From Thermoproteota archaeon (lineage in GTDB: Archaea; Korarchaeota; Korarchaeia; Korarchaeales; Korarchaeaceae), in assembly GCA_015522685.1 (NCBI GenBank), contig WALU01000032.1, forward strand, positions 32,001-96,000: a stretch of 64,000 nucleotides of DNA. The letters are read 5' to 3'. Under the pieces are notes generated by a model. The model saw nothing but the letters and a program-made list of their open reading frames with translations. It ran no database searches and had not been told where the DNA came from. The translations under genes and the position numbers were made by a program. Positions 8,998 to 58,960 of the stretch are shown in pieces. Position 1 is the stretch's first letter, and every line of letters begins with the position of its first letter.

Positions 8998-10380
8998 ATG
9001 AGGAGGGTCCTAGTCGAAGACCTAGAAGCGATCATCAGATCAAGAGAGGCTAAAGTTTCCGTCGTCGGGCAAGGATATATAGGGTTACCGACATCCCTAC
9101 TTATAGCAAAAGCGGGTTTTTCGGTGTATGGTTACGATATTAATCAGAGCTTGGTAAGGAATCTCTCAATTGGGAAAACTAAACTTACTAAGGAGAGAGG
9201 GATAAAGAATCTAATCAGTGAGCTAAAAGGCAAAAATTACATACCAACAAGTAACCTCGAAGATCTTCTTGGATCGGATGTTGTAATAATAGCGGTCCCA
9301 ACTCCTAAAAGTAGAGAAAGACCTGACATAAGCATGGTATTGGAGGCTTTAAAAAGTGCTTTAGAATCTATAAGAGCTGGCGGACTTATAATAATAGAGA
9401 GTACCCTTCCACCTAGGACATTTTACGATGTAGTAATCTCTAGAGTAGAGGAACATGGTTTCAGAGTAGGCCGAGATATTTTCCTAGCCTACTGCCCGGA
9501 AAGAGCGCTTCCAGGGAATCTCCTTCACGAGCTAGTTAATAATTTCAGAGTAATCGGCGCAGCTGATGAACGTTCAGGTCGGCTAGCTAGACTCCTCTAT
9601 AGCTCATTTGTTAAGGCAGATATAGAGATAGTCGATCCACTTACAGCTGAAATGGTTAAACTGGTTGAGAATTCTTATAGGGATGTGAATATAGCATTCG
9701 CTAATGAGGTAGTGAGAATATGCGAAGTCCTAGGTCTTGATGTAAGAGAAGTGAGGAGATTGGCTAATAAGCATCCAAGAGTTCACATGCTAGTTCCAGG
9801 GATAGGCGTTGGAGGAAGCTGCCTAACAAAAGATCCTCTATTTCTCTTCTGGATATCGAAGGAAAATGGTTATTCACCGGATTTGATAAAAAATGCTAGA
9901 GATCTAAACTCTGAAATGCCCTATCACTACGCTAGGATCCTAGATGACGTAATTAGGAGAATAACTGACAGAAGTACAGGTATTATAGCAGTTTTGGGAG
10001 CAACTTATAAAGGAGGTGTTCCTGATCCTAGAGAATCACCAGTAGAGCCCTTTGTTAAAGAACTTATAAAGAGAGGGCACACTGTAAAGGTCTATGATCC
10101 TCTAGTTAGATCTTCTTTCGGAGGTATCTATGTTTCGAACATGATGGAAGCCGTTAAGGATTCGGATGCTATAGCTTTTGTTACGGATCATAGTGAATTC
10201 AAGTTCATCGATCTAAATAAGCTAAGAAAATCTACTGATAAAAAGCAGGTTGTTCTTTTTGATGGAAGATTATTATTTGATCCATCTGAGGCAGAAAAAG
10301 CTGGATTTATTTACATATCCGTTGGCAGGTCTCTTAGAAGATTAGAGGAAAGAATGATAAAATTAAATCACCATTCATGA
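8998..10380 (+). CDS. Nucleotide-sugar dehydrogenase (UDP-ManNAc dehydrogenase/WecC family)
   Basis: GQGYIGLP, IAVPTP, ESTLPP, CPER, KLVENSYRDVNIA, GVGGSCL. Confidence 0.9.
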   Translation: MRRVLVEDLEAIIRSREAKVSVVGQGYIGLPTSLLIAKAGFSVYGYDINQSLVRNLSIGKTKLTKERGIKNLISELKGKNYIPTSNLEDLLGSDVVIIAVPTPKSRERPDISMVLEALKSALESIRAGGLIIIESTLPPRTFYDVVISRVEEHGFRVGRDIFLAYCPERALPGNLLHELVNNFRVIGAADERSGRLARLLYSSFVKADIEIVDPLTAEMVKLVENSYRDVNIAFANEVVRICEVLGLDVREVRRLANKHPRVHMLVPGIGVGGSCLTKDPLFLFWISKENGYSPDLIKNARDLNSEMPYHYARILDDVIRRITDRSTGIIAVLGATYKGGVPDPRESPVEPFVKELIKRGHTVKVYDPLVRSSFGGIYVSNMMEAVKDSDAIAFVTDHSEFKFIDLNKLRKSTDKKQVVLFDGRLLFDPSEAEKAGFIYISVGRSLRRLEERMIKLNHHS

Positions 10381-16103: not shown

Positions 16104-16808
16104 ATGCTTGAAGCTGTCAGCTTAGTAGCTATAGATGTAGATGGTACCCTAACTTATAAGGAGCCATATATTCACTTGGGTGCCATTAAATCTCTTAGAT
16201 CTCTAGGTAAGGAGGTACCTATCACCTTGGTTACTGGAAATCCTTATCCTATCGCCTATGCTCTCACCGTTTATCTGAGGCCATATGACAAAGTGATAGG
16301 TATAGCAGAAAACGGTGCTGTAATCTATATAGGAAATAGAGAGATATTAGAGGGAAATATTGAAGTGATGGAAAATGTGAGGAAATTTTTGATGAAGCGA
16401 GGATACTATAAATATATTTCTGAAGATTCCAAATTCAGATTTGTGGATATAGCGCTCAGAATGAAGCCGGAGGATCAGGAGAGGCTGAAGAAGGATTTAT
16501 CTGAGGCTGGATTTGATGTTGAGACAACTTCCAGTGGATACGCTATACATGTACTTCCACGAGAAATCAGCAAAGGAACAGGTCTTCTTACCCTATGCAA
16601 GGAGATGAATATAAGTTGTAAAGAAGTCGTAGCGATAGGGGACTCCTATAACGACATAAGCATGTTCTCTGCCGCTGGTCTCTCTATAACCCTCCCAAAT
16701 GCTCCTGAAGATGTGAAAAAGAAAGCAGATATTGTGATAGGCGGACCTGGTTATGGCTATAGCCTGCCTTTGGCCCTAAAAGTGGTTAAAAGGATCATTT
16801 CTCCTTAG
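16104..16808 (+). CDS. HAD IIB phosphatase (archaeal phosphoglycolate phosphatase type)
   Basis: DVDGTLT, VTGN, AENGA, SKG, GDSYND; start trimmed to MLEAV. Confidence 0.88.
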   Translation: MLEAVSLVAIDVDGTLTYKEPYIHLGAIKSLRSLGKEVPITLVTGNPYPIAYALTVYLRPYDKVIGIAENGAVIYIGNREILEGNIEVMENVRKFLMKRGYYKYISEDSKFRFVDIALRMKPEDQERLKKDLSEAGFDVETTSSGYAIHVLPREISKGTGLLTLCKEMNISCKEVVAIGDSYNDISMFSAAGLSITLPNAPEDVKKKADIVIGGPGYGYSLPLALKVVKRIISP

Positions 16809-17763
16809 ATTCTCTTCTCTTAGAACCTCTTTCGAGCTTGATCCTCCAGTACACATAAGCACTAACTATTATTGGGAGTATTGAAGCTAATAATATCTCT
16901 TGCACAGGAAGATGAGGTTCCGTCTTTTGTACTATGACTATTAAAGACTTTCCATCCTCTTGAAGCTGAGGAACGAATTCCCATAAGGCATCATTCCATA
17001 ATACTAGCTTAGGAGTGGGACTTCCTCCTAAAACCTCAATGTTATTGTTTGTAAAGTTGACCCACACATTAGCGGATATATCGTTTGGTAAGGCTATGGT
17101 TAAAGGGGTTAGATCTATATAATAGTAGCCACTAGTGCTTTTTCTTAATTCCAGAGGGAGCGTGTCAACTGTAACAGCGTAATCTACAATCATAGCCCCG
17201 GTGGCAGCTTGGATCTCAGTCTTGTAGGATACACTGAGGCGCTTAATCTTGCTATCTCTCGTTGAGCAAGAAGCTATGGCAGTTATTCCCGTATAGTTTA
17301 CGAAGGGAGTGACTCTATATGTCACATTAACAAAATTCCACCTTATACCGTATAATAGAAGAAACTTATCTCCATAGAGGAAGTTCATCATAGTATAGAC
17401 TGTTGCATTGTTAAATTGCCCCATTGCTGCAGCCTTGGTGAAGAAGCTAGCTCTTATTGTAGGCTCTCCCGGTCTAGGGATGGCAATCATAGAATAGGTC
17501 CCTCTAGGGCCGGCTTGGGTCATTTTCAATGTTATGTTTCCACTATAGTTGATCCAATTAAGGATGGGAGCCTTTAGCATATTGGAGAAGTATAGAGTCT
17601 CTGGCTTATGTATAAGACGAAATATCTCCGCTTTCATTGTAGTAGATAGATCATTATGAATCTCTATTGTCACTTTAGGCATAGGTCTCGATGAATGAGC
17701 TGGTAGCACGTTAAGGCTAATGAGAATGATAGATGCTATCAGTACTGTTTGAAGTTTTCTCAT
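16795..17763 (-). CDS. Hypothetical exported protein with C-terminal membrane anchor
   Basis: N-terminal signal peptide, beta-rich body with N-x-S/T sequons, C-terminal hydrophobic helix plus basic tail. Confidence 0.7.
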   Translation of the reverse strand: MRKLQTVLIASIILISLNVLPAHSSRPMPKVTIEIHNDLSTTMKAEIFRLIHKPETLYFSNMLKAPILNWINYSGNITLKMTQAGPRGTYSMIAIPRPGEPTIRASFFTKAAAMGQFNNATVYTMMNFLYGDKFLLLYGIRWNFVNVTYRVTPFVNYTGITAIASCSTRDSKIKRLSVSYKTEIQAATGAMIVDYAVTVDTLPLELRKSTSGYYYIDLTPLTIALPNDISANVWVNFTNNNIEVLGGSPTPKLVLWNDALWEFVPQLQEDGKSLIVIVQKTEPHLPVQEILLASILPIIVSAYVYWRIKLERGSKRRESKEK

Positions 17764-17831: not shown

Positions 17832-20321
17832 ATGTCTAACAAGAAGGGTATCTTACTCTCAGTGTTTTACTTAGGCAGTGATAAAACTGCTATACTGAAA
17901 TTTTATGACCTTGAAAATGGCCAGGTTTTCCTAGTTAAAGATAGTACTGACCATAAGCCCTACCTTCTCACTAATGCTCCTCCAGACATTATAGAAAATA
18001 TCTTACCTCCCAATCTTATCTCTCGTATCTATAATATCTCCACAGTGAATAAGTATGATGTCCTTCGAGATCAGCAGATTGGGCTAACTAAGATTGAAGC
18101 CAAAGATCCCCTGGCGATCGGAGGATCTTCCCATAATATAAGAGACGAGCTTGTTAAGAAGGGATTTAACGTTTGGGAGGCTAAGATAAAATACTACGAC
18201 TGCTATGTCTACGATAGAGGTCTAATACCCGGATGCTCATATGAGGTAGATGAAGAAGGTAATTTAAGGAGGACTTTAATTGAGAGGAATCTACCCGGTG
18301 AGTTCAGGGATCTAAATCCTAAAATAAAGGAAATTTTGGGATCATTCATACCACTATTTGATGAACCTTCGCCACCGATGCGCAATGCTGCTCTTGATAT
18401 AGAAGTTCTATCTTCTCCAGATAGGATACCAGATCCCTCGAAGCCGGATAGGCCTGTTGCCGCTGTGGCATTGGTGGATAGTGATGGAAGAAAGGAGGTC
18501 CATGTACTGGCTAGAGGAGGGGATATACCAGATAAGTTGAGAAATGGAGCCAGAATTGTGAAGTATGAAAATGAAGGGAGGCTTATAAGATCAGTCCTAG
18601 ATATAATCTCAGATTATCCCATAATCTTCACCTACAATGGAGATAATTTCGATATGCCTTACTTGGCCAGAAGGGCTAGAGAGTTGGGTGTAAGTGATAG
18701 GCCTATAAGGCTAGAGAGGGATCGCGCTCTGCTGGATACTGGAATGCATATAGATCTATACAAACTTTTCAGTAACAGATCAATTCAAGTTTACGTTTTC
18801 GGCAACAAATATCTGGGTTATACATTAGATGAGGTCTCTGAAGCTCTACTAGGAGAAGGAAAGATTCAACTAGGGACTAGAGACTTTTACTCGGTTGGAG
18901 TGAAGGATTTAGCGGAGTATTGCTTACAAGATGCGGAACTCACTTTCAAACTAGGAAATATAGGATCAAGGGAATTGATACATCTGCTGTTCCTCCTATC
19001 TAGGATAAGCAAGATGTCCTTAGAAGAGGTGTCTAGACAAGGTGTCTCTTCATGGATAAGAAACATGATATTCTTCGAATACAGGAAAAGAAATTGGTTA
19101 ATACCAGAGAAAGATGAAATAAAGGCCATTAGAGGAGAGAGAACATATTCCCAAGCAATAATAAAGGGAAAGAAGTATATGGGAGCCATAGTGCTTGAAC
19201 CTGTACCAGGAGTACACTTTAACGTAGCTGTCATGGATTTCGCAAGCCTATATCCTTCCATAATAGGGAGATGGAAGGTGAGTTTTGAGACAATAAATTG
19301 CCCTCATACTGATTGTAAGGACAACAAACCAGTTAGGGAATTGCCCCACTGGATCTGTAAGAAAGGGCTTGGCATAATTCCTTATATGATCCAAGCTCTC
19401 AGAGATGTGAGAGTCAGGAGATATAAGAGGATAGCTAGAGAAGAAAAGAACGAGGAAATGAGAAGGTGGTACGATACAGTTCAGAGAAGCCTCAAGGTAT
19501 TCCTCAATGCTTCTTATGGGATATTTGGATATGAGAATTTTCCTTTATACTCTCCACCTGCAGCGGAAATGATCACAGCTCTAGCAAGGAAATCAATGGT
19601 CCTTTCGATAGAGGAGGCTAAAAAAATGGGGCTAAAAGTGATATATGGTGATACAGATAGCTTATTCATAAAACAAGCTACAAAAAGTAGCATTGAATCC
19701 TTGGAGGCTGTTATAGAATCTAAGCTTGGTATAGATCTAGAGCTGGATAAGTGGTATCGCTACGTTGTCCTATCTAAGCTAAAGAAGAACTACCTAGGAG
19801 TTACAAAAGAGGGAGTTATTGATGTAAAAGGTCTCCTAGGTAAAAAGAGGAACATACCCAGATTTGTGAAAGAAGCATTCAATGAGGTCTTAGAAATTTT
19901 GAGGGGTGTCGAGGCTCCTGAGGAATTTGAGGAGGCCAAGCATAAAGTAGCTGAAACCATAAAGTTATATGTTAAAAAATTAAAATCAGGTGAATTTGAT
20001 CTAGAGGAATTAGCTTTCAGAACAATGCTCTCTAAGAGATTAGATAGCTACAAAAAAACAACGCCGCAGCATGTTAAGGTAGCTAGAATGATGGAAAGCA
20101 TGGGTTACAAGATAGTACCTGGCCAGGTTATAAAATACGTTAAAGTTAGGGGTAGAGAGGGGGTCATGCCAATTGAGCTGGCCAATAAATCCCAGATAGA
20201 CAAAGGAAAATACTTAGAAATAATAAAAACAACATTTGAGCAAATACTTGATTCCTTAGATATGAATTTCGATAGCATAGTCAAAGAGAGGAAATCAACT
20301 AGCTTGGAGGAATTCTTCTAG
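17832..20321 (+). CDS. polB1: Family B DNA polymerase PolB1
   Basis: Exo motifs LDIEV, YNGDNFD, YCLQD intact; DFASLYPS, KVFLNASYG, YGDTDS; B1-type DSTDHKPY, DPLAIGG, TPQHVK; PIP-like SLEEFF. Confidence 0.95.
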   Translation: MSNKKGILLSVFYLGSDKTAILKFYDLENGQVFLVKDSTDHKPYLLTNAPPDIIENILPPNLISRIYNISTVNKYDVLRDQQIGLTKIEAKDPLAIGGSSHNIRDELVKKGFNVWEAKIKYYDCYVYDRGLIPGCSYEVDEEGNLRRTLIERNLPGEFRDLNPKIKEILGSFIPLFDEPSPPMRNAALDIEVLSSPDRIPDPSKPDRPVAAVALVDSDGRKEVHVLARGGDIPDKLRNGARIVKYENEGRLIRSVLDIISDYPIIFTYNGDNFDMPYLARRARELGVSDRPIRLERDRALLDTGMHIDLYKLFSNRSIQVYVFGNKYLGYTLDEVSEALLGEGKIQLGTRDFYSVGVKDLAEYCLQDAELTFKLGNIGSRELIHLLFLLSRISKMSLEEVSRQGVSSWIRNMIFFEYRKRNWLIPEKDEIKAIRGERTYSQAIIKGKKYMGAIVLEPVPGVHFNVAVMDFASLYPSIIGRWKVSFETINCPHTDCKDNKPVRELPHWICKKGLGIIPYMIQALRDVRVRRYKRIAREEKNEEMRRWYDTVQRSLKVFLNASYGIFGYENFPLYSPPAAEMITALARKSMVLSIEEAKKMGLKVIYGDTDSLFIKQATKSSIESLEAVIESKLGIDLELDKWYRYVVLSKLKKNYLGVTKEGVIDVKGLLGKKRNIPRFVKEAFNEVLEILRGVEAPEEFEEAKHKVAETIKLYVKKLKSGEFDLEELAFRTMLSKRLDSYKKTTPQHVKVARMMESMGYKIVPGQVIKYVKVRGREGVMPIELANKSQIDKGKYLEIIKTTFEQILDSLDMNFDSIVKERKSTSLEEFF

Positions 20322-23523: not shown

Positions 23524-23572
23524 CGCTTCTCTTAGCAGGATGTACTAAAAAAATTAGGTTAGATGGATAAGA

Positions 23573-23992
23573 TCATCGAATTACCGGCCTAAACTTGTAT
23601 GAATAAGCTATGATGCCAGATTCCCCGCTAACTTTGGTTTTCCTTAGCACCATCTCCACTTCCATTCCCTTCTTTGCTTCTGAAGGAGAGATATCGGTTA
23701 GCTGAGCCATTATCCTACTTCCATCCTCCAATTCTATGATAGCTAGTACGTATGGCGTATAATATTCATATCCTCTTAAAGCATTCCATACAACAGTATA
23801 ATTGAGCACTTTCCCTTTCCTAGGAAGAATGACTGTTTCTATATTCTTAGAACCACATACAGGACATATATCTTCTTTAGGCAGCATTATATAGCCACAA
23901 TCCATACACCTGCCTCCTTCTAGCCTATATCTGGCCGGTATCTCTCTCCAGTGAGCAGGTACGCTCTGCCAATATGCCCACATATCGTTCAC
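23573..23992 (-). CDS. DUF35 Zn-ribbon/OB-fold scaffold protein
   Basis: RYRLEGGRCMDCG...CPVCG, OB fold, YSYKFRP; operon with HMGS and thiolase. Confidence 0.92.
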   Translation of the reverse strand: MNDMWAYWQSVPAHWREIPARYRLEGGRCMDCGYIMLPKEDICPVCGSKNIETVILPRKGKVLNYTVVWNALRGYEYYTPYVLAIIELEDGSRIMAQLTDISPSEAKKGMEVEMVLRKTKVSGESGIIAYSYKFRPVIR

Positions 23993-25128
23993 ACCCCCCT
24001 AACTAGGTGAACTACGGAATTACTTCCTATCCCCCCGATACCAAGAGTCAATCCACTCATGGCTCCTTTAACTTGCCATCCATCTGCTCTTCCAGTTACT
24101 TGTAGATATGCCTCAGCTACTTGGTATACCCCTGTAGCTCCAACGGGATTACCTCTGGCCTTCAATCCTCCCTCCGGATTTATTGGAACGGGCCCATCCC
24201 TATTGGCCTCGCCACTGCTGAATAGGCGAGACGCTTTCCCTCTCTCCGCTAATCCCAATTCCTCCACTGCAATATATCCCATAATGCTAGAGTAATCATG
24301 TATTATGTAAAAGTCTGGCTTGAAGTTAGTATTCTCCATGGCTCTTTTGAAAGCAGTTCTAATAGAAGGCATTTCTGTCAAATCTCTCCTCCTATATAGC
24401 GATATGGAGTCTGTGGCTTGTCCCGAGGAAACTATCTCAGCATTCCCATTAGATCCCTCAGCATCTTTAGATAACACTACTGCTGCAGCTCCATCACCTA
24501 GAGGCGCTAGATCAAGCATTGTGAGGGGTTCCGCTATGACTGGAGAAGAAGAATAGCTTTCTGGTTTCAATTTGAATCTGAGCTGAGCATGAGGAGTATC
24601 TACTGCATTTTCATGCATGAGTAAAGGTAGATATGAGAACTCCTCCTTAGATACATTATATTTCCACATATATGCCCTCATAACTAATGCATGCATGGCA
24701 TCTAGCGTTCCTCCATGAAAAGCCTCATATTCTGAATCTATTGATGTAGAAAGAGCTGAATTAGAGTCTTCGAGGGCTGTATAATCGGTGACTTTTTCTA
24801 CACCAACAACAAGTACTCTATCCGCCATTTTAGAGGATACTAGACTGCTGGCTAAGAGGACAGCAGCTCCTCCCGAAGCCCCAGCGGCCTCGATTTTAAC
24901 TGCAGGGAGGCCTATCTTTCCCAAATGAGTAGCTACATAGGAACCTAGGTTCTCTTGACCATTAACAACTCCCGATAGAGCATTTGCGACGACTATATAA
25001 TCTATATTCTTATTACAAGATTCTAGCGCCTTTAAAGATGCCTCGACTGCAAGATGCCTCAAGGACTTATTCCAGTGATTTCCGACATTAGTTAAACCAA
25101 CTCCAACTATATATACCATTAGGCACAC
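23989..25128 (-). CDS. Acetyl-CoA acetyltransferase (thiolase)-like protein with catalytic Cys and His replaced
   Basis: Thiolase motifs DGAAAVVL and INPEGGLKARG.PVGATG present, but EAAGASG (normally EAACASG) and GNP (normally GHP). Confidence 0.85.
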   Translation of the reverse strand: MCLMVYIVGVGLTNVGNHWNKSLRHLAVEASLKALESCNKNIDYIVVANALSGVVNGQENLGSYVATHLGKIGLPAVKIEAAGASGGAAVLLASSLVSSKMADRVLVVGVEKVTDYTALEDSNSALSTSIDSEYEAFHGGTLDAMHALVMRAYMWKYNVSKEEFSYLPLLMHENAVDTPHAQLRFKLKPESYSSSPVIAEPLTMLDLAPLGDGAAAVVLSKDAEGSNGNAEIVSSGQATDSISLYRRRDLTEMPSIRTAFKRAMENTNFKPDFYIIHDYSSIMGYIAVEELGLAERGKASRLFSSGEANRDGPVPINPEGGLKARGNPVGATGVYQVAEAYLQVTGRADGWQVKGAMSGLTLGIGGIGSNSVVHLVRGV

Positions 25129-25131
25129 CCC

Positions 25132-26226
25132 CTAATAAGAGCTAAAATCATGGAGCATACGTATCATCCTTCTGTAGCGAGCATAGGTTGTGTAATCAAC
25201 GTATTCTTTTCTATTAACATAATTTAGTGTCTTAGGAGCTAAATTTTGCACCTCCTCAATGCCATCATTGACCTCTATATGAAAAGCATCGCTGCCAGCT
25301 CCAGAACCAAATGACACAACTAGAATGCGCTGTCCAGGCTTTGCCTGATCAAGAACGGCCGACAAACCAACTAAGGCCGATCCACTGTATGTGTTTCCTA
25401 TGTATGGAGTGATCAGACCTGGCTTTACCTTATCCGGGGTGAAACCAAGTCTAGTACCTACTCTCAACGGATATTTGCCATTGGGCTGATGAAATACTGC
25501 ATAATCATAATCCTCGGGTTTTGTTCCGATGAAGTTCATTAGTTCCTTGGCTGCCGTCATTATATGCTTAAAGTAAGCAGGTCCGCCAGTAAAGGCCCTT
25601 GTGTGGGCTGGGTAATGCTCATGCTGCCTCCTCCAGAAATCTGGTGTGTCTGTCACATGAGAGAGTGAAGCTTTTATAACAGCTACTGAGTCCGCTGCAG
25701 GCCCTAATATATAAGCAGATCCTCCAGCCGCTGCAGTATATTCTAAGGCATCTCCTGGCGCTCCCTGTGCAGTGTCTGCTCCTACTGCTAAGCCATAGTC
25801 TATCATATTGGAGCCTATAAGCCCTATTACTGCTTGGATCGCTTCAGTGCCAGCCTTGCAGGCGAACTCGTAGTCAGCACCTGTAGTAAGCCTTCTCTCG
25901 CCACCTGCACCTAAGGCCTCTATAAGCATGGTGGCTGTAGTCTTAACGGCATAAGGTTTAGATTCTGTTCCTACGTAGACAGCTCTCAGTTTAGAAGCCT
26001 CTATATGGGCTCTTTTTAAGGCATTAATTGAGGATTCGTAAGCTATGGTGAAGGCATCTTCATCTATACCCGGTACGCTCTTCTCTTGGACCATTATACC
26101 TGCTGCATATCTATTCCAATCCCTGCCCCACTCTCTAGCAAGCTCTTCGGATCTTACCCTCCATTTAGGAACATAAACTCCCCATCCAACTATACCTACT
26201 TTCCTATTTGCTTTCATAAGGATCAC
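25132..26226 (-). CDS. Hydroxymethylglutaryl-CoA synthase (archaeal)
   Basis: GTESKPYAVK, EFACKAG, DTPDFWRR, HQPN, GNTYSG, SFGSGAGSD. Confidence 0.95.
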   Translation of the reverse strand: MILMKANRKVGIVGWGVYVPKWRVRSEELAREWGRDWNRYAAGIMVQEKSVPGIDEDAFTIAYESSINALKRAHIEASKLRAVYVGTESKPYAVKTTATMLIEALGAGGERRLTTGADYEFACKAGTEAIQAVIGLIGSNMIDYGLAVGADTAQGAPGDALEYTAAAGGSAYILGPAADSVAVIKASLSHVTDTPDFWRRQHEHYPAHTRAFTGGPAYFKHIMTAAKELMNFIGTKPEDYDYAVFHQPNGKYPLRVGTRLGFTPDKVKPGLITPYIGNTYSGSALVGLSAVLDQAKPGQRILVVSFGSGAGSDAFHIEVNDGIEEVQNLAPKTLNYVNRKEYVDYTTYARYRRMIRMLHDFSSY

Positions 26227-27825: not shown

Positions 27826-28617
27826 ATGAACAGAGACAGCCTGATAGTTGTCGGGGTGATAATAGTAGTAGCCATAGTGCTTGGTTCTGCATATATTACA
27901 ATTTCAAGGGGCGTAGCTCCATCTTTGCTAGGAACAATGACGTCCGGTAGCGAGCGTGGGAGTGCTCGCACTACTATGACATCAGCCAGTGGAGGTAAAA
28001 CACAGACTAAAACAAATGCAGGAAATGGCCCTAGCTTTAGCTCTCTATTCCTCAAGAAAGGGAAATTTTCAGCTACATATGATTTGTATAAGAATCTAAA
28101 GAAAGAAGGTACTGCTAGCATATATGTCAAAGGGGCTAAGGAGAGTAGATTCGACTTGAGCATACCTCAGAGTCAATACATAACTATAAGAAATGACACA
28201 AGCTATATAACTTGTTTCAAACAGGCTAAACAAAGTTGGCAATGCTTCAAGGCTAAGGAGGGGCAGTATCCACAATCTCAGGGAGGAGGCAGACCTCAAG
28301 TTAGTGATCCTGTCAAAGAGGGTGAGGAATTCAAGAGTCCTATATATAATGGAACTAGGAAGTATGCTGGTAAGACCTGTTATTGCTATTACGTAAAGAA
28401 GCAGAAGAAGATTATGATAAATGGGAGCGAAAAAATGGGATCTGCTTATATAGAGATATGCATAACATCGGATGGAGTACCAGGCTATTTCTTATCTCTA
28501 TGGAATTCCCCTAGTGGAAAGGACATAGTTAGATATGAAGGCGTAGCAAAGACTATCTTATATTCTGTTCCAGAAAATGTATTTAATCCTCCTGCTCAGC
28601 CAAGGAGTCTTCCATAA
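27826..28617 (+). CDS. Membrane-anchored exported protein, Ser/Thr linker, Cys-containing LolA/DUF4412-like domain
   Basis: N-terminal TM helix, S/T/G linker, five Cys, C-terminal VPENVFNPP. Fold assignment is inference. Confidence 0.6.
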   Translation: MNRDSLIVVGVIIVVAIVLGSAYITISRGVAPSLLGTMTSGSERGSARTTMTSASGGKTQTKTNAGNGPSFSSLFLKKGKFSATYDLYKNLKKEGTASIYVKGAKESRFDLSIPQSQYITIRNDTSYITCFKQAKQSWQCFKAKEGQYPQSQGGGRPQVSDPVKEGEEFKSPIYNGTRKYAGKTCYCYYVKKQKKIMINGSEKMGSAYIEICITSDGVPGYFLSLWNSPSGKDIVRYEGVAKTILYSVPENVFNPPAQPRSLP

Positions 28618-43794: not shown

Positions 43795-45030
43795 ATGAGA
43801 TACCTCATCGTAGCTTCGCTTATAATGATGATATTGATGCTTCCTATAGTGAATAATGCTAAGGCTCAGGCGGCCCTATTGGGAGTCTCTAATACTGACG
43901 TCATAGCTGGAAGCACTTTTTTTGCCTTTTATAATATAACAACTACGAAAGATAGGCCAATAGTAGGATTTAATCTCTCTCTAATGGTCCCAAATGGATG
44001 GGAAATCTCACCTTATGGAGCTAGTGGGATAACTCCTAATGGAGATGAAATAAAGGTAGAATGGAAGGAAAAGAATGCTATCTACAAAGGGACTGGGGCA
44101 TCAGTAGCCCATATTTCCTTCAAGGTGAGAGTTCCTTTGGAGGATATGAATGTAAAGAGGACTATCTTTGCCAGCGGATATATAGCAGTCAAAGAAGGAG
44201 GTGCTACTAAGAAATACTTTGTAACTGGAAAGAAGGAGATTTTTATTCACAAGTGGGAACCCTTCATATTCTTAAATCTCAGCAAGATAGAGGTGATCCC
44301 CCCAGCTATCTTAGTTGCATATGTAAGAGTGTTAACTGGTCCACCCCTCTATTCCGTCGCTATGAGGAATGTCCTGGTGAAAGTGGGGGATACCGCAACT
44401 GGCACTCTCTACAATGAGAAATTCGGTTATTGGAGATATGGTTATGCCACAGATGTCAGGATACCCATAAAGATACCGCTCAATGCTAGTGGAGGAATTC
44501 AGAAGGTTTATGTGACGGTGGATTATGAAGTAGCAGGACATAAGCTTAGGAGCTATGTAGAATATCCTTATAAGATTATGAAGCCGTCTGAAGTTAAAAT
44601 AGATCAAATGAACGTACCTAAAAAAGTAAAAGCTGGTAAATACCTTGTCTTAAATGCAACAATTGTAAATCCTTCTTCTTTTAAGGCATTAGAGGCGGAG
44701 TTCCATGCAAAGCTAGGTGAAGATCACAAGGTCGTTAAGCTAGGAGATATGAGGGCAGGATCTTTTGCTCATGTGAGCCTGAAGTTTAAGATACCTAGGT
44801 CAGGACGAAACCTTACTCTAACGGTTTGGACAGCTTGGAAGCAGGAATATCCCGAAGAAATTAAGATGATGAAAGAAGGAACTTACAATATTCAGGTGAT
44901 CAGTTCCTCGTCTGGAATCTCGACTTCTTGGTGGCTCATCCTTGCATTGGTGGTGATCGCTGGTGCGGCAGTTGAGTACTTGGTTAAAAGAAGAAGAAAT
45001 AGAAAGGCTGAAAATTATAGTGAAATCTAA
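43795..45030 (+). CDS. Exported Ig-like/CARDB-type surface protein with C-terminal anchor
   Basis: Signal peptide, beta-sandwich-like segments, Ser linker, TM helix plus KRRR. Confidence 0.7.
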   Translation: MRYLIVASLIMMILMLPIVNNAKAQAALLGVSNTDVIAGSTFFAFYNITTTKDRPIVGFNLSLMVPNGWEISPYGASGITPNGDEIKVEWKEKNAIYKGTGASVAHISFKVRVPLEDMNVKRTIFASGYIAVKEGGATKKYFVTGKKEIFIHKWEPFIFLNLSKIEVIPPAILVAYVRVLTGPPLYSVAMRNVLVKVGDTATGTLYNEKFGYWRYGYATDVRIPIKIPLNASGGIQKVYVTVDYEVAGHKLRSYVEYPYKIMKPSEVKIDQMNVPKKVKAGKYLVLNATIVNPSSFKALEAEFHAKLGEDHKVVKLGDMRAGSFAHVSLKFKIPRSGRNLTLTVWTAWKQEYPEEIKMMKEGTYNIQVISSSSGISTSWWLILALVVIAGAAVEYLVKRRRNRKAENYSEI

Positions 45031-46634: not shown

Positions 46635-47729
46635 ATGTGGGACATTGCAATAGTCGGGGCGGGTCCATCGGGATCAACGGCAGCTTATCTACTAGCTAAA
46701 ATAGGATTTAAAACTTTACTCTTGGATAAGAAGAACTTTCCTAGGCCAAAACCTTGCGGTGGGGGGATAACTCTCAAAGCCGGGAAGCTCTTGTCAGAGT
46801 TGGGTCTTCCTCTAGAACCTGTCGAGGCTTATCATAGGGAAGTAATAGTTAAAGGATATGATAAAGAGATTACGGTTAGTACATCTCCGGGAGGATATGC
46901 TATAGCAGTAGTTAGGAGAGAAGAATTTGATAAGAGACTCCTTGAAGAGGCGGTCTCATGGGGAGCATCCTTTCAAGTATCAAAAGTATATGGAATAAGG
47001 GAGAGAGGTAATGTAGTGAAGATAGTAGGAGCTGATGAAGAAGCTAGATATGTAATAGGGGCTGATGGGGCGAATTCTATTGTAGCAATCTCCTCTGGCA
47101 TTAGAGGATCTTGGAATAAAGGAGATTTGATAATAGGAATAGAAGGCGTAGCTCCTCATTACGAAAAACTAACTTTTATGGTAGATGCAGCTCCCTACGG
47201 ATATGGATGGATATTTCCGCGATCTACCGATTCTAATGCTGGAGTGGGGGGAATGATCGAGAAATCTAGCGAAATATTATCAGCTTTTAATATGTTTTCG
47301 TTGAAATATAAAGCTAAAATGAATAGATCTTGGGTAATCCCCATTGGAGGACATAGAAAGCCCATTGCTAAGGGAAGGGTTTTATTAGTTGGTGATTCTG
47401 CTGGATTAGCTGACCCTTTAACTGGAGAAGGACTGTATTATGCTATTAGAAGCTCCCTTGAAGCGGCAAATTCCCTTGAAAGTGGGGAGCCGGATAAAGA
47501 TTACATGAGAAGGATGGAACCCATAATTGAAGAGCTTAGAAGCAAAAGAAAAGCAGCTAAGATCATAATACCGCGGATAAATTTCTTCTTCAATCTATTC
47601 GTCTCTTATCCAGAGATAGCAAGGAGGTATATGCTCACGTCCATAGGGAAAGTAGAGTTCAAGGATTTCTGGAGGTGGTCCATAACAAGAATTCCTAGAG
47701 CTCTCATAAGAAGCAAACTCGGTATATAA
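46635..47729 (+). CDS. Geranylgeranyl reductase family FAD oxidoreductase
   Basis: GAGPSG, FPRPKPCGGG, GADG, YGWIFP, GDSAG..DPLTGEG. Confidence 0.88.
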   Translation: MWDIAIVGAGPSGSTAAYLLAKIGFKTLLLDKKNFPRPKPCGGGITLKAGKLLSELGLPLEPVEAYHREVIVKGYDKEITVSTSPGGYAIAVVRREEFDKRLLEEAVSWGASFQVSKVYGIRERGNVVKIVGADEEARYVIGADGANSIVAISSGIRGSWNKGDLIIGIEGVAPHYEKLTFMVDAAPYGYGWIFPRSTDSNAGVGGMIEKSSEILSAFNMFSLKYKAKMNRSWVIPIGGHRKPIAKGRVLLVGDSAGLADPLTGEGLYYAIRSSLEAANSLESGEPDKDYMRRMEPIIEELRSKRKAAKIIIPRINFFFNLFVSYPEIARRYMLTSIGKVEFKDFWRWSITRIPRALIRSKLGI

Positions 47730-47869: not shown

Positions 47870-48175
47870 TCATAGAGAAGAAATCATATCACCGTAGATG
47901 CATCTAATTAATTTTAGTTGACTATTATAGAGGAAGCTGGGCGTTACTCGGATACTCGAGACAGTACATCTTTTCCCTTCATCTATTCGTCTAATATCTT
48001 TATTCTCGAGCTCTTTGATTCTCCCGTTATTATCCTTCTTGAGACAGATCTCTCTAGCCTCTTCAGTTAACTGAGAGATATTGAGTGGGGCCTTGCTTAC
48101 CAGCACCCCTAACACGCCTCTGATTATAATTGTAGTGGCTGCTATAGCGGCTCTCCCAGTAACAAAAAGGATCAT
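47870..48175 (-). pseudogene. Possible decayed winged-HTH protein
   Basis: VLGVLVSKAPLNISQLTEE resembles an HTH start; the rest looks frameshifted. Confidence 0.3.
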
Positions 48176-49623
48176 CTTGGAGAGTTCTTAATCTTTCCAT
48201 AGGATACAAGGGCTTTCATGGCTCTAGCAGCTCTTTCAGATTCTGGATATGCAGGTATCCCCTCCGCCTCGAACATTTCCCTGAAGGCTTTAGCATATTG
48301 CGAGGATCCAACGTCCATTGCCACCACTGGCTTATCATAGCTCTTAGATAAGCCTGCTAATCTATTTGGAAGATTGGTGGTCACTCCTGGGACATGATGA
48401 AGGGCAAGAATCATTATACCATCTACATTATCATCCTCTAAGAGTATCCTCATAGTCTCTACGAAGGAATCATCTGTTGCGCTGCCTGTTAAGTCTATTG
48501 GGTCGATAGTAGCTGCAATAGGGGGGATTATCCTTTTTTCCTTGAGATTTTGAAATATGTTCTGGCTTTCTTCAGATAAATTAGCTAGTTTGAGGCCCAA
48601 AGCCTCAGTTTCATCTGCAGCCATGACGCCTACGCCTCCTCCATCTGTCAAAATAGCTATCCTATTCCCCCTAGCAGGAGGCTGCATTACTAGAGCTTTA
48701 GCAACATCGAAGAGCTCCTCCATATCTCTAACCCTAATCACACCTGCCTGCTTAAAGGCAGCATCATAAACATTATCACTACCAGCCATGGCAGCGGTAT
48801 GTGAATTCGCTGCTCTTGCTCCAGCACTTGTTCTTCCTGCCTTAAAGATCACTATAGGCTTTTCTTTCGTTATCTCTCTAGCTAACTTTAAGAATTCCCT
48901 TCCCCTATCTATTGACTCGGCATATATGAGGATTACCTTTGTCTCCTCATCTCTCCTAAGATATTCTAGAACATCAACCTCATCTACATCCAATTTGTTG
49001 CCATAGCTAATGAATTTAGCTAGGCCAATTCCTTCACCATGCATGTAATCAAGACAGGCAACGCCAAAAGCTCCAGATTGAGTGCTTAGTGATATATTGC
49101 CAGGTTTCGGTCTAGGAGATGATATATATTTCTTGTCTAGGAACTCCTTCTCTACAGGTAAAAACATGGTATCTACTCCAGTTGATGGGACAACCACACC
49201 GACGCAGTTAGGACCTATAACTCTCATCTCATATCTATCCCTAAGAGCTTCAAGTTCCCTCTGGAGTTCTACTCCTTCTCCACCTACCTCCGCAAAGCCA
49301 CCACTTATAACTATGACATTCTTTATTCCCCTCTTTCCACAATCCTCCATGGCCGAAGGAGTGTACTTAGCAGGTGTTACTAAAATAGCTAGATCTGGGG
49401 CATCAGGTAGTTCTAAGATAGACTTGTAAGTAGGTACGCCAAGTATCATCTCATTCGATTTAGGATTTACGGCATACAGCTTCCCCTTATAGATACCCAT
49501 TTGTGAATTTTCGACCAATATCCTCAACAGCTCATAGCCTATCTTTCTTGGAGTTCTAGAGGCACCTACAATTGCCATGGACCTAGGATTGAAGAAACTA
49601 TCTAGCGAAGACACCTTATTCAC
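48172..49623 (-). CDS. acdA: ADP-forming acyl-CoA synthetase alpha subunit
   Basis: FFNPRS.AIVGAS, GPNCVG, QSGA, GNK.D, SHTAAMAG (phospho-His), DP.DLTG. Confidence 0.92.
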   Translation of the reverse strand: MNKVSSLDSFFNPRSMAIVGASRTPRKIGYELLRILVENSQMGIYKGKLYAVNPKSNEMILGVPTYKSILELPDAPDLAILVTPAKYTPSAMEDCGKRGIKNVIVISGGFAEVGGEGVELQRELEALRDRYEMRVIGPNCVGVVVPSTGVDTMFLPVEKEFLDKKYISSPRPKPGNISLSTQSGAFGVACLDYMHGEGIGLAKFISYGNKLDVDEVDVLEYLRRDEETKVILIYAESIDRGREFLKLAREITKEKPIVIFKAGRTSAGARAANSHTAAMAGSDNVYDAAFKQAGVIRVRDMEELFDVAKALVMQPPARGNRIAILTDGGGVGVMAADETEALGLKLANLSEESQNIFQNLKEKRIIPPIAATIDPIDLTGSATDDSFVETMRILLEDDNVDGIMILALHHVPGVTTNLPNRLAGLSKSYDKPVVAMDVGSSQYAKAFREMFEAEGIPAYPESERAARAMKALVSYGKIKNSPR

Positions 49624-53879: not shown

Positions 53880-55076
53880 CTACTCTATCTTCTTTTTCCT
53901 CTCTCTTTCATAGAAAACATAGAGCTTCTGCACATTCTGTAAAGCAACTAAATCAGCTCTTCTGCCTCTGAAGCTCAGTTTATCTAATCCCTCTAGCTCC
54001 GAAGCTACCCTCAAAGCATCGAACATTATAACCTCTGGCCTTAATGTTTTAGAATGTTCTATGCATGCAGTATCTGCTAGATTTATGTAATCAGGGTAAG
54101 ACGGACCTCTCGTATGCTTCGCAGAGTACTCTGCGAAATTCTTCAAATATAAATTAAATCCAGTCAGTTTTATTACTGGTCCATTAATCGCATGAGGTCT
54201 GTAGAAACCGACCTCTACATCGTTGAATAAAGGATTTTGAAGAAATAATGAAGCCATTCTGTCTACATAATGCCTCTTCCTCCTTACCATAGATGAGAAA
54301 TAGGAAATGGTGAACTTAGAGTCTTCATATTCATCACCATATCTTCCTACGTTTATGAACTCTCCTGGATCCATCAATAGCCATCCAATGATTGAATCTG
54401 ACAAGAGGTCTGAGAGTATAGGTCTAGGAATGTCTTTTGGAGCATTATCTATGATCTCCATCAGCTCACTTCCTAGGAATTTGTACGCAATAAGGGAGGT
54501 GCTAATCCTCTTCACTAAACCAACTAAACCCTTCTTCTTAGCTTTTGCATGCTTCATTATCCTATGAGAAAGCCCTGTTATACTTGATCCCTTCCTTAAC
54601 TGAAATATTGCATCGGCAGGAGGAAAATCCCCATCTCTAACTAAGATGTCAAAATCTTCTCTCCTTGAAATAATATCTTCCATAAGCTTTAGCTCTTCTC
54701 TTTTGGCCATGACTGAAGAAAGAGAGGAGTATAACTCTTCTTCTTCATTAAAATCTTCTCTAATTGATTTAAGTCTGAATATCGGTCTTCTTGCCTTAGG
54801 ATATGTTACAGCCGCTAGAAGGATGAATTCAGCTCTTAGTCCTCTTAGAGATAGAGTAGGAGAGAAAGTGGAGTCTATGGCTACTATCTCATATTCCTTG
54901 GGAGGATCACCAAGCCTCAAAACATTCTCCCTCAAAAATCTCCCTAATTTATCATATATTGGAATGAGATATTTCCATGCTCTCCTCATATGAATCGTAA
55001 TTTTCCTTGCTCTATCGAGAGCAGCAGAATATATATCAGGATCTAGGAGATCCCCTTTCCATTCAACATCGCTCAT
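53880..55076 (-). CDS. NurA-family nuclease (divergent)
   Basis: IVAIDST, REE, LVRDGD, GLVKR, SD, YPDYINLAD; ATGA overlap with herA. Confidence 0.78.
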   Translation of the reverse strand: MSDVEWKGDLLDPDIYSAALDRARKITIHMRRAWKYLIPIYDKLGRFLRENVLRLGDPPKEYEIVAIDSTFSPTLSLRGLRAEFILLAAVTYPKARRPIFRLKSIREDFNEEEELYSSLSSVMAKREELKLMEDIISRREDFDILVRDGDFPPADAIFQLRKGSSITGLSHRIMKHAKAKKKGLVGLVKRISTSLIAYKFLGSELMEIIDNAPKDIPRPILSDLLSDSIIGWLLMDPGEFINVGRYGDEYEDSKFTISYFSSMVRRKRHYVDRMASLFLQNPLFNDVEVGFYRPHAINGPVIKLTGFNLYLKNFAEYSAKHTRGPSYPDYINLADTACIEHSKTLRPEVIMFDALRVASELEGLDKLSFRGRRADLVALQNVQKLYVFYERERKKKIE

Positions 55077-56587: not shown

Positions 56588-57682
56588 ATGAATAGAGAGA
56601 ACTATTGGAAGACGGTGTGTCTAATGGATATTGAAAAGGAATTACAGGAAAACAGAAGACTCATAGACTCAATAATAAAGAGCAAGTTTCCTAGGAATAT
56701 AGACTCTAGCTATCTAAAGTGGCTTGCAGGAGATACATCCTATTTATATGATCTCGAAGTAGTTCAAAAAACTATATTTGATCCTATGTGGGATCTACTC
56801 TCAAGAGGAGGAAAGAGATGGAGACCTTGGCTCTTTCTAATCCTCGCAAATAACCTAGGAGTTGATTTGGATAAGTTTAGGGATCTAGTCACAATAGTAG
56901 AGTTACTCCACAATGGCTCCCTTGTTGCTGATGACATCGAAGATGGAGCCGACATAAGGAGAGGAGATAAAGCAATACATCTGAAATATGGGTTGGATAT
57001 TGCTGTGAACTTATCATCAGCTATGTATTTCATGCCTCTTAGGATCTTAATGGAGATGGACGTGAGCAGGGATATCTATAGGAGACTGGTTGAGGCATAT
57101 ATAGAGGACATGATCCGCATACATCTAGGGCAGGCTACGGATATTGGGTGGCATAGGGGATTAAGGGATCCAGAGAGTATAAAGGTGGAACATTATCTAC
57201 AGATGTGTGCTAATAAGACGGGGGTACTCCCTAGACTAGCTGCTAGATTTGCGGCAATACTTGCTCAATTAAGCCCTGAGAATGAGGCAAAGATAGGTAA
57301 ATTTGCCGAATCCATAGGAATAGCCTTCCAAATACAGGACGATATAATCAACGTTATAGGAGCTGAAAAATTAGGAAAAAGCTTTGGGGAGGATATAACT
57401 GAGGGAAAAATAACATTGATGACAATATACACACTTTCAAGGGCAAGCGAGGAAGATAAGAGGAGGCTGAAAGAGATATTAGAAATGCATACGAGAGATA
57501 GGGCGCTTATTGAGGAAGCAATTTCAATCTTAAAGAGGTATGGCTCAATAGAATATGCGAAGAAGTTCGCTAAGGATCTTGTAAAGAAATCTTGGGAGAA
57601 TGTAGAGAGCATATTGCCAAATAATGAATATAAAGAGAAGCTTAGATCCTTGGCTAATTTTATGGTTGAGAGGGAATTCTGA
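56588..57682 (+). CDS. Polyprenyl (geranylgeranyl) diphosphate synthase
   Basis: GGKRWRP, LVADDIED...RRG, GQATD, KT, FQIQDD, DITEGK. Confidence 0.93.
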   Translation: MNRENYWKTVCLMDIEKELQENRRLIDSIIKSKFPRNIDSSYLKWLAGDTSYLYDLEVVQKTIFDPMWDLLSRGGKRWRPWLFLILANNLGVDLDKFRDLVTIVELLHNGSLVADDIEDGADIRRGDKAIHLKYGLDIAVNLSSAMYFMPLRILMEMDVSRDIYRRLVEAYIEDMIRIHLGQATDIGWHRGLRDPESIKVEHYLQMCANKTGVLPRLAARFAAILAQLSPENEAKIGKFAESIGIAFQIQDDIINVIGAEKLGKSFGEDITEGKITLMTIYTLSRASEEDKRRLKEILEMHTRDRALIEEAISILKRYGSIEYAKKFAKDLVKKSWENVESILPNNEYKEKLRSLANFMVEREF

Positions 57683-57685
57683 AGA

Positions 57686-58960
57686 TTATCTAGGAGGAAG
57701 TAATCCCTTCTTGGATATGAATTCCAGCCTCCTTGTCTTTACTATTGATGAGAGGAAAACGAGGGTAGCAGAAGATATGTAAAGGCCGGTTAATCCTATG
57801 AGTTCGAAGGCAAATCCTCCAAATAGCGCTCCAATAGACCAGCCTAAAGATCTAATGAAATTTACATGTCCTAAGTATTCAAGGGAAACCTTAAGGCCCC
57901 TTCTAGATATAGAGACTAATATAAAGGACCAAGTGGCTCCATCTAGGATCATAAAGGCTATGAAGTACTCTAAAGGCGAGATAATCTTCATAATTACTAC
58001 AGGTACGCTTAAGAGCATGAAAGATCTCATCATAGCTGAATAATTTAGGTTCTTAACCTCTCCTCCTTTACCGGCTCTCGAGTAAAATATGCTGGATATC
58101 AAGGAGCTTAGAGCAGATAACATGAATATCTCAGAATTATTAAGCCCTAGAGATTTTTGCACCCCTACCAGTTGTGGATATGCAAGGCCAAGTCCAATGA
58201 AAGCTAAAAATACCTTTAAACCGAATGGAACTCCTTTTCTTGGGATGCCAAGGAGTAAGTAAGATGGCCTCTGAAAGAAGGTTCCTCTGGTAGCCCTCGA
58301 TATTTGAGCTAGAGTCCACTCCAAGGCTTCCTCCTCTGCCCTTTGGACAGCTTCTAACCCATCTTCTATTATGGGGAGCACTCCAATCTCTTCCTCATAT
58401 ATCTTCCTGAGGATCCTAACTACATTAATCTCTAAGGAGATCACTATCATAGGGAAGAGAGCTAGGTCTAGTATTATTCCAGCTAAAGCTAGCATGCTGA
58501 TGCTTAGAAAGTTCAGAGCTGTACCACCAACAACGAGTCCAGAGAACCAAGCCCAGCCAGAAACAGATTCATAAGAAGATGAGGTGACGGAAGAATCTCC
58601 TAACTTATCGTAAGCATAAAACAGGCCTGAAAAGTAGGAGATAGGTGAAATAAAGGCTATTAGAAAGGATACAATTAAAGCGACGTTTATATCTTCAATC
58701 GTTAGGGCAAGAAGTGGTATTATAAGAGCTAGATGACCTAGCGAGATGCCTGTAGTGTGGCGATGTCTAGGGGATAGAGCCTTGGTCCAGATCATATTGC
58801 CTAGCATCAGTCCTATATACATGAAGAAGAAGGAGAAAGAAAGATGTTCCGGCCCTCCTCCATAATCTAGAACTGCTAGAGGAGCTAACTGATATATCAT
58901 TGAGGAGAGAAATCTATGAGGGATAGAGGCCGTTTTCCACTTCTCCATTTCTCTTCTCAC
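57686..58960 (-). CDS. MFS-like multi-pass membrane protein
   Basis: Two bundles of about six TM helices separated by a long cytoplasmic loop. Confidence 0.65.
   Translation of the reverse strand: MRREMEKWKTASIPHRFLSSMIYQLAPLAVLDYGGGPEHLSFSFFFMYIGLMLGNMIWTKALSPRHRHTTGISLGHLALIIPLLALTIEDINVALIVSFLIAFISPISYFSGLFYAYDKLGDSSVTSSSYESVSGWAWFSGLVVGGTALNFLSISMLALAGIILDLALFPMIVISLEINVVRILRKIYEEEIGVLPIIEDGLEAVQRAEEEALEWTLAQISRATRGTFFQRPSYLLLGIPRKGVPFGLKVFLAFIGLGLAYPQLVGVQKSLGLNNSEIFMLSALSSLISSIFYSRAGKGGEVKNLNYSAMMRSFMLLSVPVVIMKIISPLEYFIAFMILDGATWSFILVSISRRGLKVSLEYLGHVNFIRSLGWSIGALFGGFAFELIGLTGLYISSATLVFLSSIVKTRRLEFISKKGLLPPR

Follow-up and report, generated by a model that had tools for sequence, protein, structure and literature searches.

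In archaea, the accepted entry to membrane-lipid synthesis is a complex of a thiolase, a 3-hydroxy-3-methylglutaryl-CoA (HMG-CoA) synthase (HMGS) and a DUF35 protein, an arrangement that is explained by channelling, which pulls the unfavourable thiolase reaction. Such a complex from Methanothermococcus thermolithotrophicus was reportedly solved by Vogeli et al. in 2018. Here, we analyse a window of 64,000 nucleotides from a member of the Korarchaeaceae (assembly GCA_015522685.1, contig WALU01000032.1, positions 32,001 to 96,000), which contains an operon for the same three proteins. The window belongs to a metagenome-assembled genome, here called G000, of 1.48 Mb in 63 contigs with an estimated completeness of 92%, and the only sequencing dataset in which we found its DNA is a hydrothermal vent metagenome; no RNA dataset for it was listed. 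The operon resembles that of M. thermolithotrophicus in its set of three genes, in their order and in the folds of their products (the thiolase model has a TM-score of 0.95 to the chain 6et9_C), and in that the HMGS and the DUF35 protein are intact. However, the thiolase subunit in G000 lacks the nucleophilic Cys, the His of the GHP motif and the Phe of the HDxF motif. Since these catalytic residues have been lost, channelling of acetoacetyl-CoA made in situ could not operate in a complex formed by the G000 proteins. We propose that the pseudo-thiolase probably persists for a structural role within the HMGS/thiolase/DUF35 complex, while acetoacetyl-CoA would be supplied by a canonical thiolase encoded elsewhere in the genome.

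Dead or Cys-less subunits are also found in related systems. As described in a recent study, PfACAT/HMGS-DUF35 of Pseudomonas fluorescens and PhlABC/MucABC belong to the same three-part family and retain one catalytic subunit that is dead (PMC12960953). In these systems it is the HMGS-like subunit that is dead, the thiolase is alive and the context lies outside the mevalonate pathway, whereas the G000 operon is the mirror image and has kept the pathway context. The steroid aldolases Ltp2 and Sal, which are bound to the DUF35 domains of ChsH2 and Shy (PDB 6OK1), likewise have an SCP2-thiolase fold without the nucleophilic Cys, and published work places a catalytic Tyr in their YDHF/YDCY motif and gives steroid side chains as their substrates (PMC12329534). 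The G000 protein differs from them in that it lacks this Tyr and has HMGS as its partner. The “thiolase-like protein” ST0096 of Sulfolobus tokodaii (PDB 4YZO) is a member of the same family (E 1.2e-56) with a Ser at the nucleophile column and both the HD and the GHP His kept, and thus Cys-less members exist in cultured archaea. An earlier note on this DNA, made from the sequence alone, had called the arrangement in the operon undescribed, and we found no paper describing a Cys-less thiolase in an archaeal HMGS operon in the searchable full-text literature, which excludes supplements and mostly does not cover subscription journals.

Catalytic residues of the three operon proteins

The three genes are co-directional open reading frames (ORFs) at positions 23573-26226 of the window, and their naming by Pfam and NCBIfam matches HMGS, thiolase and DUF35. 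The genes and the codons at the three catalytic positions of the thiolase-like protein, as determined by alignment to solved thiolases and codon reading, are as follows:

25132-26226, minus strand: HMG-CoA synthase (HMGS), archaeal short type, catalytically intact, 364 amino acids (NF003274, TIGR00748)
23989-25128, minus strand: thiolase-like ORF, putative pseudo-thiolase of the archaeal type (DUF35-associated, SCP2-like) without the catalytic Cys, 379 amino acids; likely start at the ATG at 25119
23573-23992, minus strand: DUF35 scaffold protein (zinc ribbon and OB fold), 139 amino acids (PF12172 and PF01796); likely start at the ATG at 23983
24880-24882, minus strand: codon GGG of Gly83, aligned with the nucleophilic Cys
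24298-24300, minus strand: codon CAT of His277; the His of HDxF is thus retained, in a motif that has become HDYS with the loss of the Phe
24148-24150, minus strand: codon AAT of Asn327, at the position of the His in G-H-P

The thiolase-like protein scores above the cut-offs for the Pfam domains Thiolase_N and Thiolase_C_1, and below those of the equivalog models NF053570, which represents the archaeal acetoacetyl-CoA thiolase (295 bits, cut-off 600), and NF004720 (342 bits, cut-off 420). It could be aligned with HMMER over the whole protein to the thiolases 7yvy from Pyrococcus furiosus (E 1.3e-82) and 6esq from the M. thermolithotrophicus complex (E 5.8e-65). In these alignments, Gly83 is placed at the nucleophilic Cys and Asn327 at the His of the G-H-P motif, while HDYS is located opposite HDAF or HDCF, so that His277 and Asp278 are kept and the Phe is replaced. 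The codon of Gly83 is two changes away from TGY. The protein thus differs from an archaeal acetoacetyl-CoA thiolase in the nucleophilic Cys, in the His of the GHx motif and in the equivalog score. The substitutions, the two codon changes and the full length of the frame had all been read from the DNA in the earlier note, and the alignments and codons bear them out.

The AlphaFold2 model of the protein is confident (pLDDT 92, pTM 0.93) and superimposes with an rmsd of 1.6 Å on the thiolase of the solved complex, 6et9_C; the TM-scores to 7yvy and 6et9 range from 0.89 to 0.95. The domains, the five-layer fold and the adjoining DUF35 gene show that the middle protein is a clear member of the thiolase-fold superfamily and of its DUF35-associated (SCP2-like) branch. 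The archaeal enzyme is defined by the Cys of the CxS motif and by the HDxF and GHx motifs, all of which it needs, and according to the same source the H284A substitution alone abolishes the formation of HMG-CoA by the archaeal complex (PMC12960953, 2026). Judged by these residues, the product of the middle gene can probably no longer perform thiolase chemistry.

The two partner proteins show no such changes, in agreement with what the earlier note had said of them. HMGS belongs to the archaeal type (NF003274, 556 bits, cut-off 244; TIGR00748, 524 bits, cut-off 353), and its catalytic tetrad, E88, C123, H246 and N278, is invariant in all 26 aligned orthologs. The DUF35 protein is a member of its family, with both PF12172 and PF01796 above their cut-offs, and the four Cys of its zinc ribbon (C29, C32, C43 and C46) do not vary among 40 sequences. 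All loci compared share the gene order HMGS-thiolase-DUF35. A gene for HMG-CoA reductase is also present in G000, and no second DUF35 gene was found in this genome.

Conservation, selection and evolutionary history

The operon is present in G000 and in the genomes of 20 other species of the genus, and the nucleophilic Cys is absent from all 21, being replaced by Gly in 14 and by Asn in seven (one fragment at a contig end is counted here). The codon at this position could be read in 18 of the copies (GGN in 12 and AAY, for Asn, in six), while the remaining three were read as protein only. The pattern is not due to chance, since the same substitutions occur in every genome of the genus. In the genomes with Gly, the GHP motif reads G-N-P, save in the earliest-branching one, where G-H-P is retained. 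Those with Asn show G-D-P instead, and their HD His has likewise been replaced, by Gly or Glu, so that the Cys, the HD His and the GHP His are all gone in one subclade. The change that the earlier note had seen in the window is conserved across the genus as a loss of the Cys; the specific replacements by Gly and Asn are not uniform.

Including the sister genus described below, 22 Cys-less sequences were compared with 14 active orthologs. The position of the GHP His is occupied by Asn in 11, Asp in six, Tyr in four and His in one of the 22 sequences, and the HD His is replaced by Gly or Glu in six, all from the G000 genus, giving the motif variants HDYS, GEYS and EEYS. Two residues are newly fixed in all 22 Cys-less sequences: Ser280 (window 24289-24291), which replaces a Phe, and His146 (window 24691-24693), which replaces an Asn, both of which are found in 14 of the 14 active orthologs. 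Among the 18 full-length copies from the genus, 12 contain no cysteine anywhere and no alternative column with a conserved Cys was found.

These patterns bear on the idea that the protein is still a thiolase, using another nucleophile or condensing its substrates directly without an acyl-enzyme. Its position in the operon, its fold and the partners of its CoA site are retained, and the HD His is present in G000. Nevertheless, we consider it very improbable: most copies in the genus are free of cysteine, one subclade lacks all three catalytic residues and the single substitution H284A is already sufficient to abolish product formation in the archaeal complex (PMC12960953). Furthermore, every Cys-less genome that was checked encodes another intact thiolase, for which there would be no need with an active subunit.

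To quantify selection, dN/dS was estimated for pairs of genes with the Nei-Gojobori method, and pairs with dS outside 0.05-2 were dropped. The median for the Cys-less thiolase gene in the G000 genus is 0.047 (21 pairs, range 0.028-0.188) and that for the Cys-less operon copy in the sister genus is 0.065 (two pairs), as compared to medians of 0.040-0.063 in four genera with the Cys (11 pairs). The values for HMGS in the same pairs are 0.024-0.059. Purifying selection on the Cys-less gene is thus as strong as in its active relatives. Consistently, of the 96 columns that are invariant in the 14 active orthologs, 63 are unchanged in 21 or all of the 22 Cys-less sequences, and the other 33 comprise, among others, the three catalytic positions and adjacent ones. 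The earlier note had named the retention of Cys and His in close relatives together with relaxed selection as signs that would speak against a maintained pseudo-thiolase, and neither was observed.

The absence of catalytic residues in a metagenome-assembled genome could also have been due to a decaying pseudogene, an assembly error or an inconsequential strain-specific allele. This explanation is refuted by the open and full-length frame in G000 and all relatives, by the occurrence of the same state in the 21 genomes of the genus and in four genomes of the sister genus, by the low dN/dS of 0.047 and by the confident structure model.

To learn when the residues were lost, we compared the 38 species genomes of the order, which represent six genera. 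The operon thiolase keeps the Cys, HDxF and GHP in all five genomes of genus g2, in the single genome of g4, in both genomes of g6 and in four of the five genomes of g3. The fifth genome of g3 (G022) has a His at the nucleophile column and HDDPS in place of HDAFS, and it encodes a further thiolase that is intact and accompanied by a DUF35 gene of its own; this looks like a recent and independent loss in a genus that otherwise carries the Cys. The sister genus of G000, g5, encodes two thiolases of the archaeal type in each of its four genomes. The copy in the operon is Cys-less (Gly, HD-x-S, G-Y-P), while the second copy has all motifs and is placed at a different site, directly behind genes for an IorA/IorB-like 2-oxoacid:ferredoxin oxidoreductase. 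In two of the four genomes, a separate DUF35 gene accompanies the active copy. This setting suggests that the active copy functions in acyl-CoA metabolism, apart from the mevalonate operon.

In a phylogeny of 43 thiolases inferred with IQ-TREE, from which two fragments at contig ends were excluded, the operon copies in g5 and all copies from the G000 genus formed one clade with maximal support (100/100), the stem of which measures 0.565 changes per site. The G000 genus and g5 are also sisters in the HMGS tree (SH-aLRT 95), but there the stem is only 0.081. For g2 and g3, the stems are of about equal length in the thiolase and HMGS trees (0.24 vs. 0.23 and 0.28 vs. 0.29, respectively). The thiolase tree thus places the loss of the Cys before the G000 genus and g5 diverged, and we infer from the trees that their common ancestor had two copies of the archaeal-type thiolase. 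In the operon copy, the Cys would have been replaced by Gly, and the Phe of HDxF lost, in a single episode of rapid change that preceded this divergence. The other catalytic His would then have decayed independently in the sublineages, to Asn, Asp or Tyr, and the G000 genus would later have lost the active second copy, which g5 still has.

The most serious rival to a structural role is that the protein has become an enzyme with another CoA-thioester chemistry, such as an aldolase, a decarboxylase or an acyl-transfer helper acting together with HMGS. Members of the fold without the Cys can be active, as illustrated by the Ltp2 and Sal aldolases and by TbSLP, for which a slow decarboxylation of malonyl-CoA is reported (PMC12329534). 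The purifying selection, which equals that on the active enzymes, and the new fixation of His146 and Ser280 in 22 of 22 sequences would both fit such an enzyme, and the Cys-less state is common, since it is seen in 84 of the 150 nearest cluster representatives. However, the sublineages differ in the residues found at the three catalytic positions (Gly/His/Asn, Asn/Gly-or-Glu/Asp, Gly/His/Tyr and Gly/His/His), and therefore no common new catalytic set is visible. Such an independent decay would be expected for an abandoned active site and, as far as the alignment can tell, argues against a new and shared one. Moreover, the motif that corresponds to YDHF/YDCY is HDYS, GEYS or EEYS and does not begin with the defining Tyr, and an identity as an Ltp2/Sal aldolase was rejected because this Tyr is replaced by His, or by Gly or Glu in the subclade. 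A source of malonyl-CoA is not evident, since no carboxyltransferase was found in G000, and HMGS itself is unchanged. We thus regard a new enzymatic activity as improbable.

Probable source of acetoacetyl-CoA and proposed role of the retained subunit

The suggestion in the earlier note that an active thiolase is encoded elsewhere was borne out at the level of sequence. A search with Thiolase_N identified one further thiolase gene in G000, located on another contig outside the window (G000:C63:29849-31048, 399 amino acids), so that the complement of this genome consists of the Cys-less operon copy and one canonical thiolase. The latter is of the AtoB/PhaA type (TIGR01930, 454 bits, cut-off 241). 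It carries the nucleophilic Cys, the Asn of NEAF, the His of GHP and the Cys of C-x-GGG, and these four motifs, which place it in thiolase II, are intact in all 23 orthologs. The G+C content of its contig, 41.3%, is close to the 41.8% of the genome. Canonical thiolase II of the AtoB/PhaA type serves the entry to the mevalonate pathway in bacteria and eukaryotes. The G000 enzyme resembles it in the TIGR01930 score and in the Cys-Asn-His-Cys set; its gene is unlinked to HMGS and lies after FixC/ETF-like and before molybdopterin genes.

The canonical thiolase is present in 20 of the 21 genomes of the G000 genus (it is missing from one that is 80% complete), in three of the four genomes of g5, in g4 and in one of the two genomes of g6. 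Searches of g2 (0/5), of g3 (0/5) and of 16 genomes outside the order did not detect it. The gene is regularly preceded by one for a FixC-like FAD oxidoreductase (loci L040-L062; NF007542, 383 bits, below the cut-off). In one single-contig relative, genes similar to those for the beta and alpha subunits of the electron transfer flavoprotein (ETF) are also located upstream. The thiolase gene is followed by MoaD/E-, MoaC- and MoaA-like genes. The link between a thiolase and an electron transfer flavoprotein in a genome without a match to acyl-CoA dehydrogenase is unexplained.

Among the other routes to acetoacetyl-CoA that were searched in G000, none was found; CoA-transferases and acetoacetyl-CoA synthetase were not part of this search. 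There was no further thiolase and no FabH/NphT7-like gene, the search for the latter matching HMGS only. The best match to enoyl-CoA hydratase had 19.7 bits, which is below the cut-off, and neither an acyl-CoA dehydrogenase nor a carboxyltransferase for the synthesis of malonyl-CoA was found. The sole match to 3HCDH_N above the cut-off (22.3 bits), a candidate for 3-hydroxyacyl-CoA dehydrogenase, was rejected as a gene for a UDP-sugar dehydrogenase (window 8998-10380). Two relatives assembled into one or two contigs agree with G000 in their content of archaeal-type and canonical thiolases. Judged by the gene content of this 92% complete genome, no consumer of acetoacetyl-CoA other than HMGS would be evident, and no enzyme other than the canonical thiolase that would make it.

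The earlier note had pictured a dead and an active thiolase together in one heteromeric complex. Pairs of a ketosynthase and a chain-length factor provide a precedent for an assembly of a dead and a live subunit. In support of such an assembly, each of the four g5 genomes encodes an active thiolase of the archaeal type besides the Cys-less one of the operon, and the thiolase is described as present in dimers in the complex (PMC11522927). However, a second archaeal-type thiolase was found in none of the 21 genomes of the G000 genus, including one in a single contig, and the only other thiolase is canonical and about 20-24% identical to the archaeal-type thiolases in BLAST comparisons. The active copy in g5, behind the IorA/IorB-like genes and with its own DUF35 gene in half of the genomes, suggests a separate job. 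A mixed complex is thus unsupported in the G000 genus and possible in g5, and as an account of the operon studied here it is decidedly unlikely.

We infer instead that the three proteins form a complex of the solved type, in which the pseudo-thiolase serves as a scaffold, as the earlier note had suggested. According to published descriptions, the archaeal HMGS is inactive and the thiolase (ACAT) insoluble when each is expressed alone (PMC12960953), and the complex consists of two HMGS dimers, two thiolase dimers and four DUF35 monomers, with a CoA-binding site that is built jointly by thiolase and HMGS (PMC11522927). The archaeal HMGS is also 50-100 residues shorter than the bacterial and eukaryotic forms (PMC11522927). 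Because HMGS is short, inactive alone and shares the CoA site at the interface, the thiolase subunit may not be discardable even when its active site is redundant. If the subunit completes the CoA site and keeps the assembly intact, strong selection on it would persist after its own chemistry had become redundant, and the loss of the Cys throughout the genus under purifying selection agrees with such a role. The free-standing canonical thiolase (G000:C63:29849-31048) would most likely make the acetoacetyl-CoA, which would diffuse to HMGS and probably dock at the retained shared CoA site. Taken together, we consider a structural role of the pseudo-thiolase, with acetoacetyl-CoA provided by the canonical enzyme, to be the probable explanation.

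Several observations weigh against this explanation or limit it. The selection, being as strong as on active enzymes, also fits a new activity, and the fixation of His146 and Ser280 is unexplained. The FixC-like and ETF-like neighbours of the canonical thiolase could point to another role for this enzyme. Genera g4 and g6 have the canonical thiolase together with a Cys-bearing operon thiolase, and hence the presence of the canonical enzyme does not by itself cause the loss of the Cys. The absence of other routes to acetoacetyl-CoA was assessed with single Pfam models in G000 only. The predicted complex of HMGS, the thiolase-like protein and DUF35 obtained a score of 0.90 and the control in which HMGS was replaced obtained 0.81, so that the prediction carries no weight either way. 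Finally, the counts for the genus amount to one or a few events, since the genomes are kin and not independent.

Recurrence in other lineages and genomic surroundings

Operon thiolases without the Cys were also identified outside the order. In two other families of the same phylum (f4 and f5), all three genomes have an Asp in place of the Cys and both His kept, and each of them also encodes paralogs with the Cys. For other archaeal phyla, we collected 75 genomes with a completeness of at least 90% and a match to HMGS, of which 74 have an adjacent thiolase. The Cys is present in 61 of these thiolases and absent from 13, which represent at least four families: six have an Asp, four have a Glu along with a replacement of the HD His by Phe, and three have a Gly along with G-Y-P. 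All five of the Cys-less genomes tested in this sample encode another thiolase with the full catalytic set, and in two of the five this includes exactly one canonical thiolase, which is the same layout as in G000. Conversely, the eight genomes with a single thiolase, as judged by the queries used, have all retained the Cys. Two metagenome-assembled genomes of Chloroflexota contain HMGS-thiolase-DUF35 operons with Gly and Glu, respectively, at the nucleophile column (L034 and L035), with an identity of 37-40% in the thiolase. Among the 150 nearest representatives in a library of 1.84 billion proteins, 65 have the Cys, 84 have another residue and one is truncated; a look-up in the Protein Atlas gave generic thiolase clusters only. 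Related genomes are not independent, and these figures are counts rather than statistics.

It is an evenly balanced proposition that lineages which gain another source of acetoacetyl-CoA repeatedly kill the active site of the partner while being unable to lose the subunit, so that the dead subunit would become a docking module for acetoacetyl-CoA and HMGS would be structurally dependent on the thiolase. If this were true, channelling would be dispensable in many archaea, including the G000 genus and its sister, families f4 and f5 and the 13 of 74 operons from other phyla, and many proteins annotated as “acetyl-CoA acetyltransferase” in archaea would be pseudoenzymes. A conserved dead thiolase in several archaeal lineages, always accompanied by another intact thiolase, would mean that channelling is not universal and that HMGS needs the thiolase subunit for non-catalytic reasons. 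Because routine annotation misnames the genes, the first step of lipid synthesis would have been assigned to the wrong protein in reconstructions of these uncultured archaea, for which the canonical thiolase is a concrete candidate for the real first step. The lineages would also offer a natural and repeated experiment on the origin of pseudoenzymes inside metabolic complexes.

In some genomes from the other archaeal phyla, the HMGS frame is 457-625 amino acids long and also matches DUF35 (L130, L167, L093/L169, L150 and L153). By their length and domain matches, these frames appear to be HMGS-DUF35 fusions. The thiolase gene is located upstream rather than downstream of some of them, and for one there is none within 1.8 kb.

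In the G000 operon, the true starts of the thiolase and DUF35 genes are likely to be ATG codons that lie a few codons further in than the ORF starts as listed, at 25119 and 23983, both of which are preceded by a GGGGGTG Shine-Dalgarno-like run. Since these starts are internal, the genes would be separated by gaps of 12 and 5 nucleotides rather than overlap. The following signals were read from the sequence:

25126-25132, minus strand: GGGGGTG, Shine-Dalgarno-like run 6 nucleotides 5' of the thiolase ATG
23992-23999, minus strand: GGGGGGTG, Shine-Dalgarno-like run 8 nucleotides 5' of the DUF35 ATG
23547-23553, minus strand: run of seven T (T7) 3' of the DUF35 stop, which may act as an archaeal terminator ahead of gatD

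The genes gatD and gatE are located downstream of the operon on the same strand, and a gene for an Ogg-type glycosylase is located upstream. Five ORFs in the window, of 263-424 amino acids, have no Pfam match at E 1e-5: 16795-17763 (minus strand), 27826-28617 (plus strand), 43795-45030 (plus strand), 53880-55076 (minus strand) and 57686-58960 (minus strand). Two genes for family-B DNA polymerases are located within 20 kb of each other on the plus strand, at 519-2741 and 17832-20321, and the former has a Pfam match to the polymerase domain only, with no match to the exonuclease domain. The window also contains genes for a geranylgeranyl-reductase-like FAD protein (46635-47729, plus strand), an ADP-forming acyl-CoA synthetase-like protein (48172-49623, minus strand) and a polyprenyl synthase (56588-57682, plus strand), and several genes related to isoprenoids and acetyl-CoA are thus placed within 35 kb of the operon.

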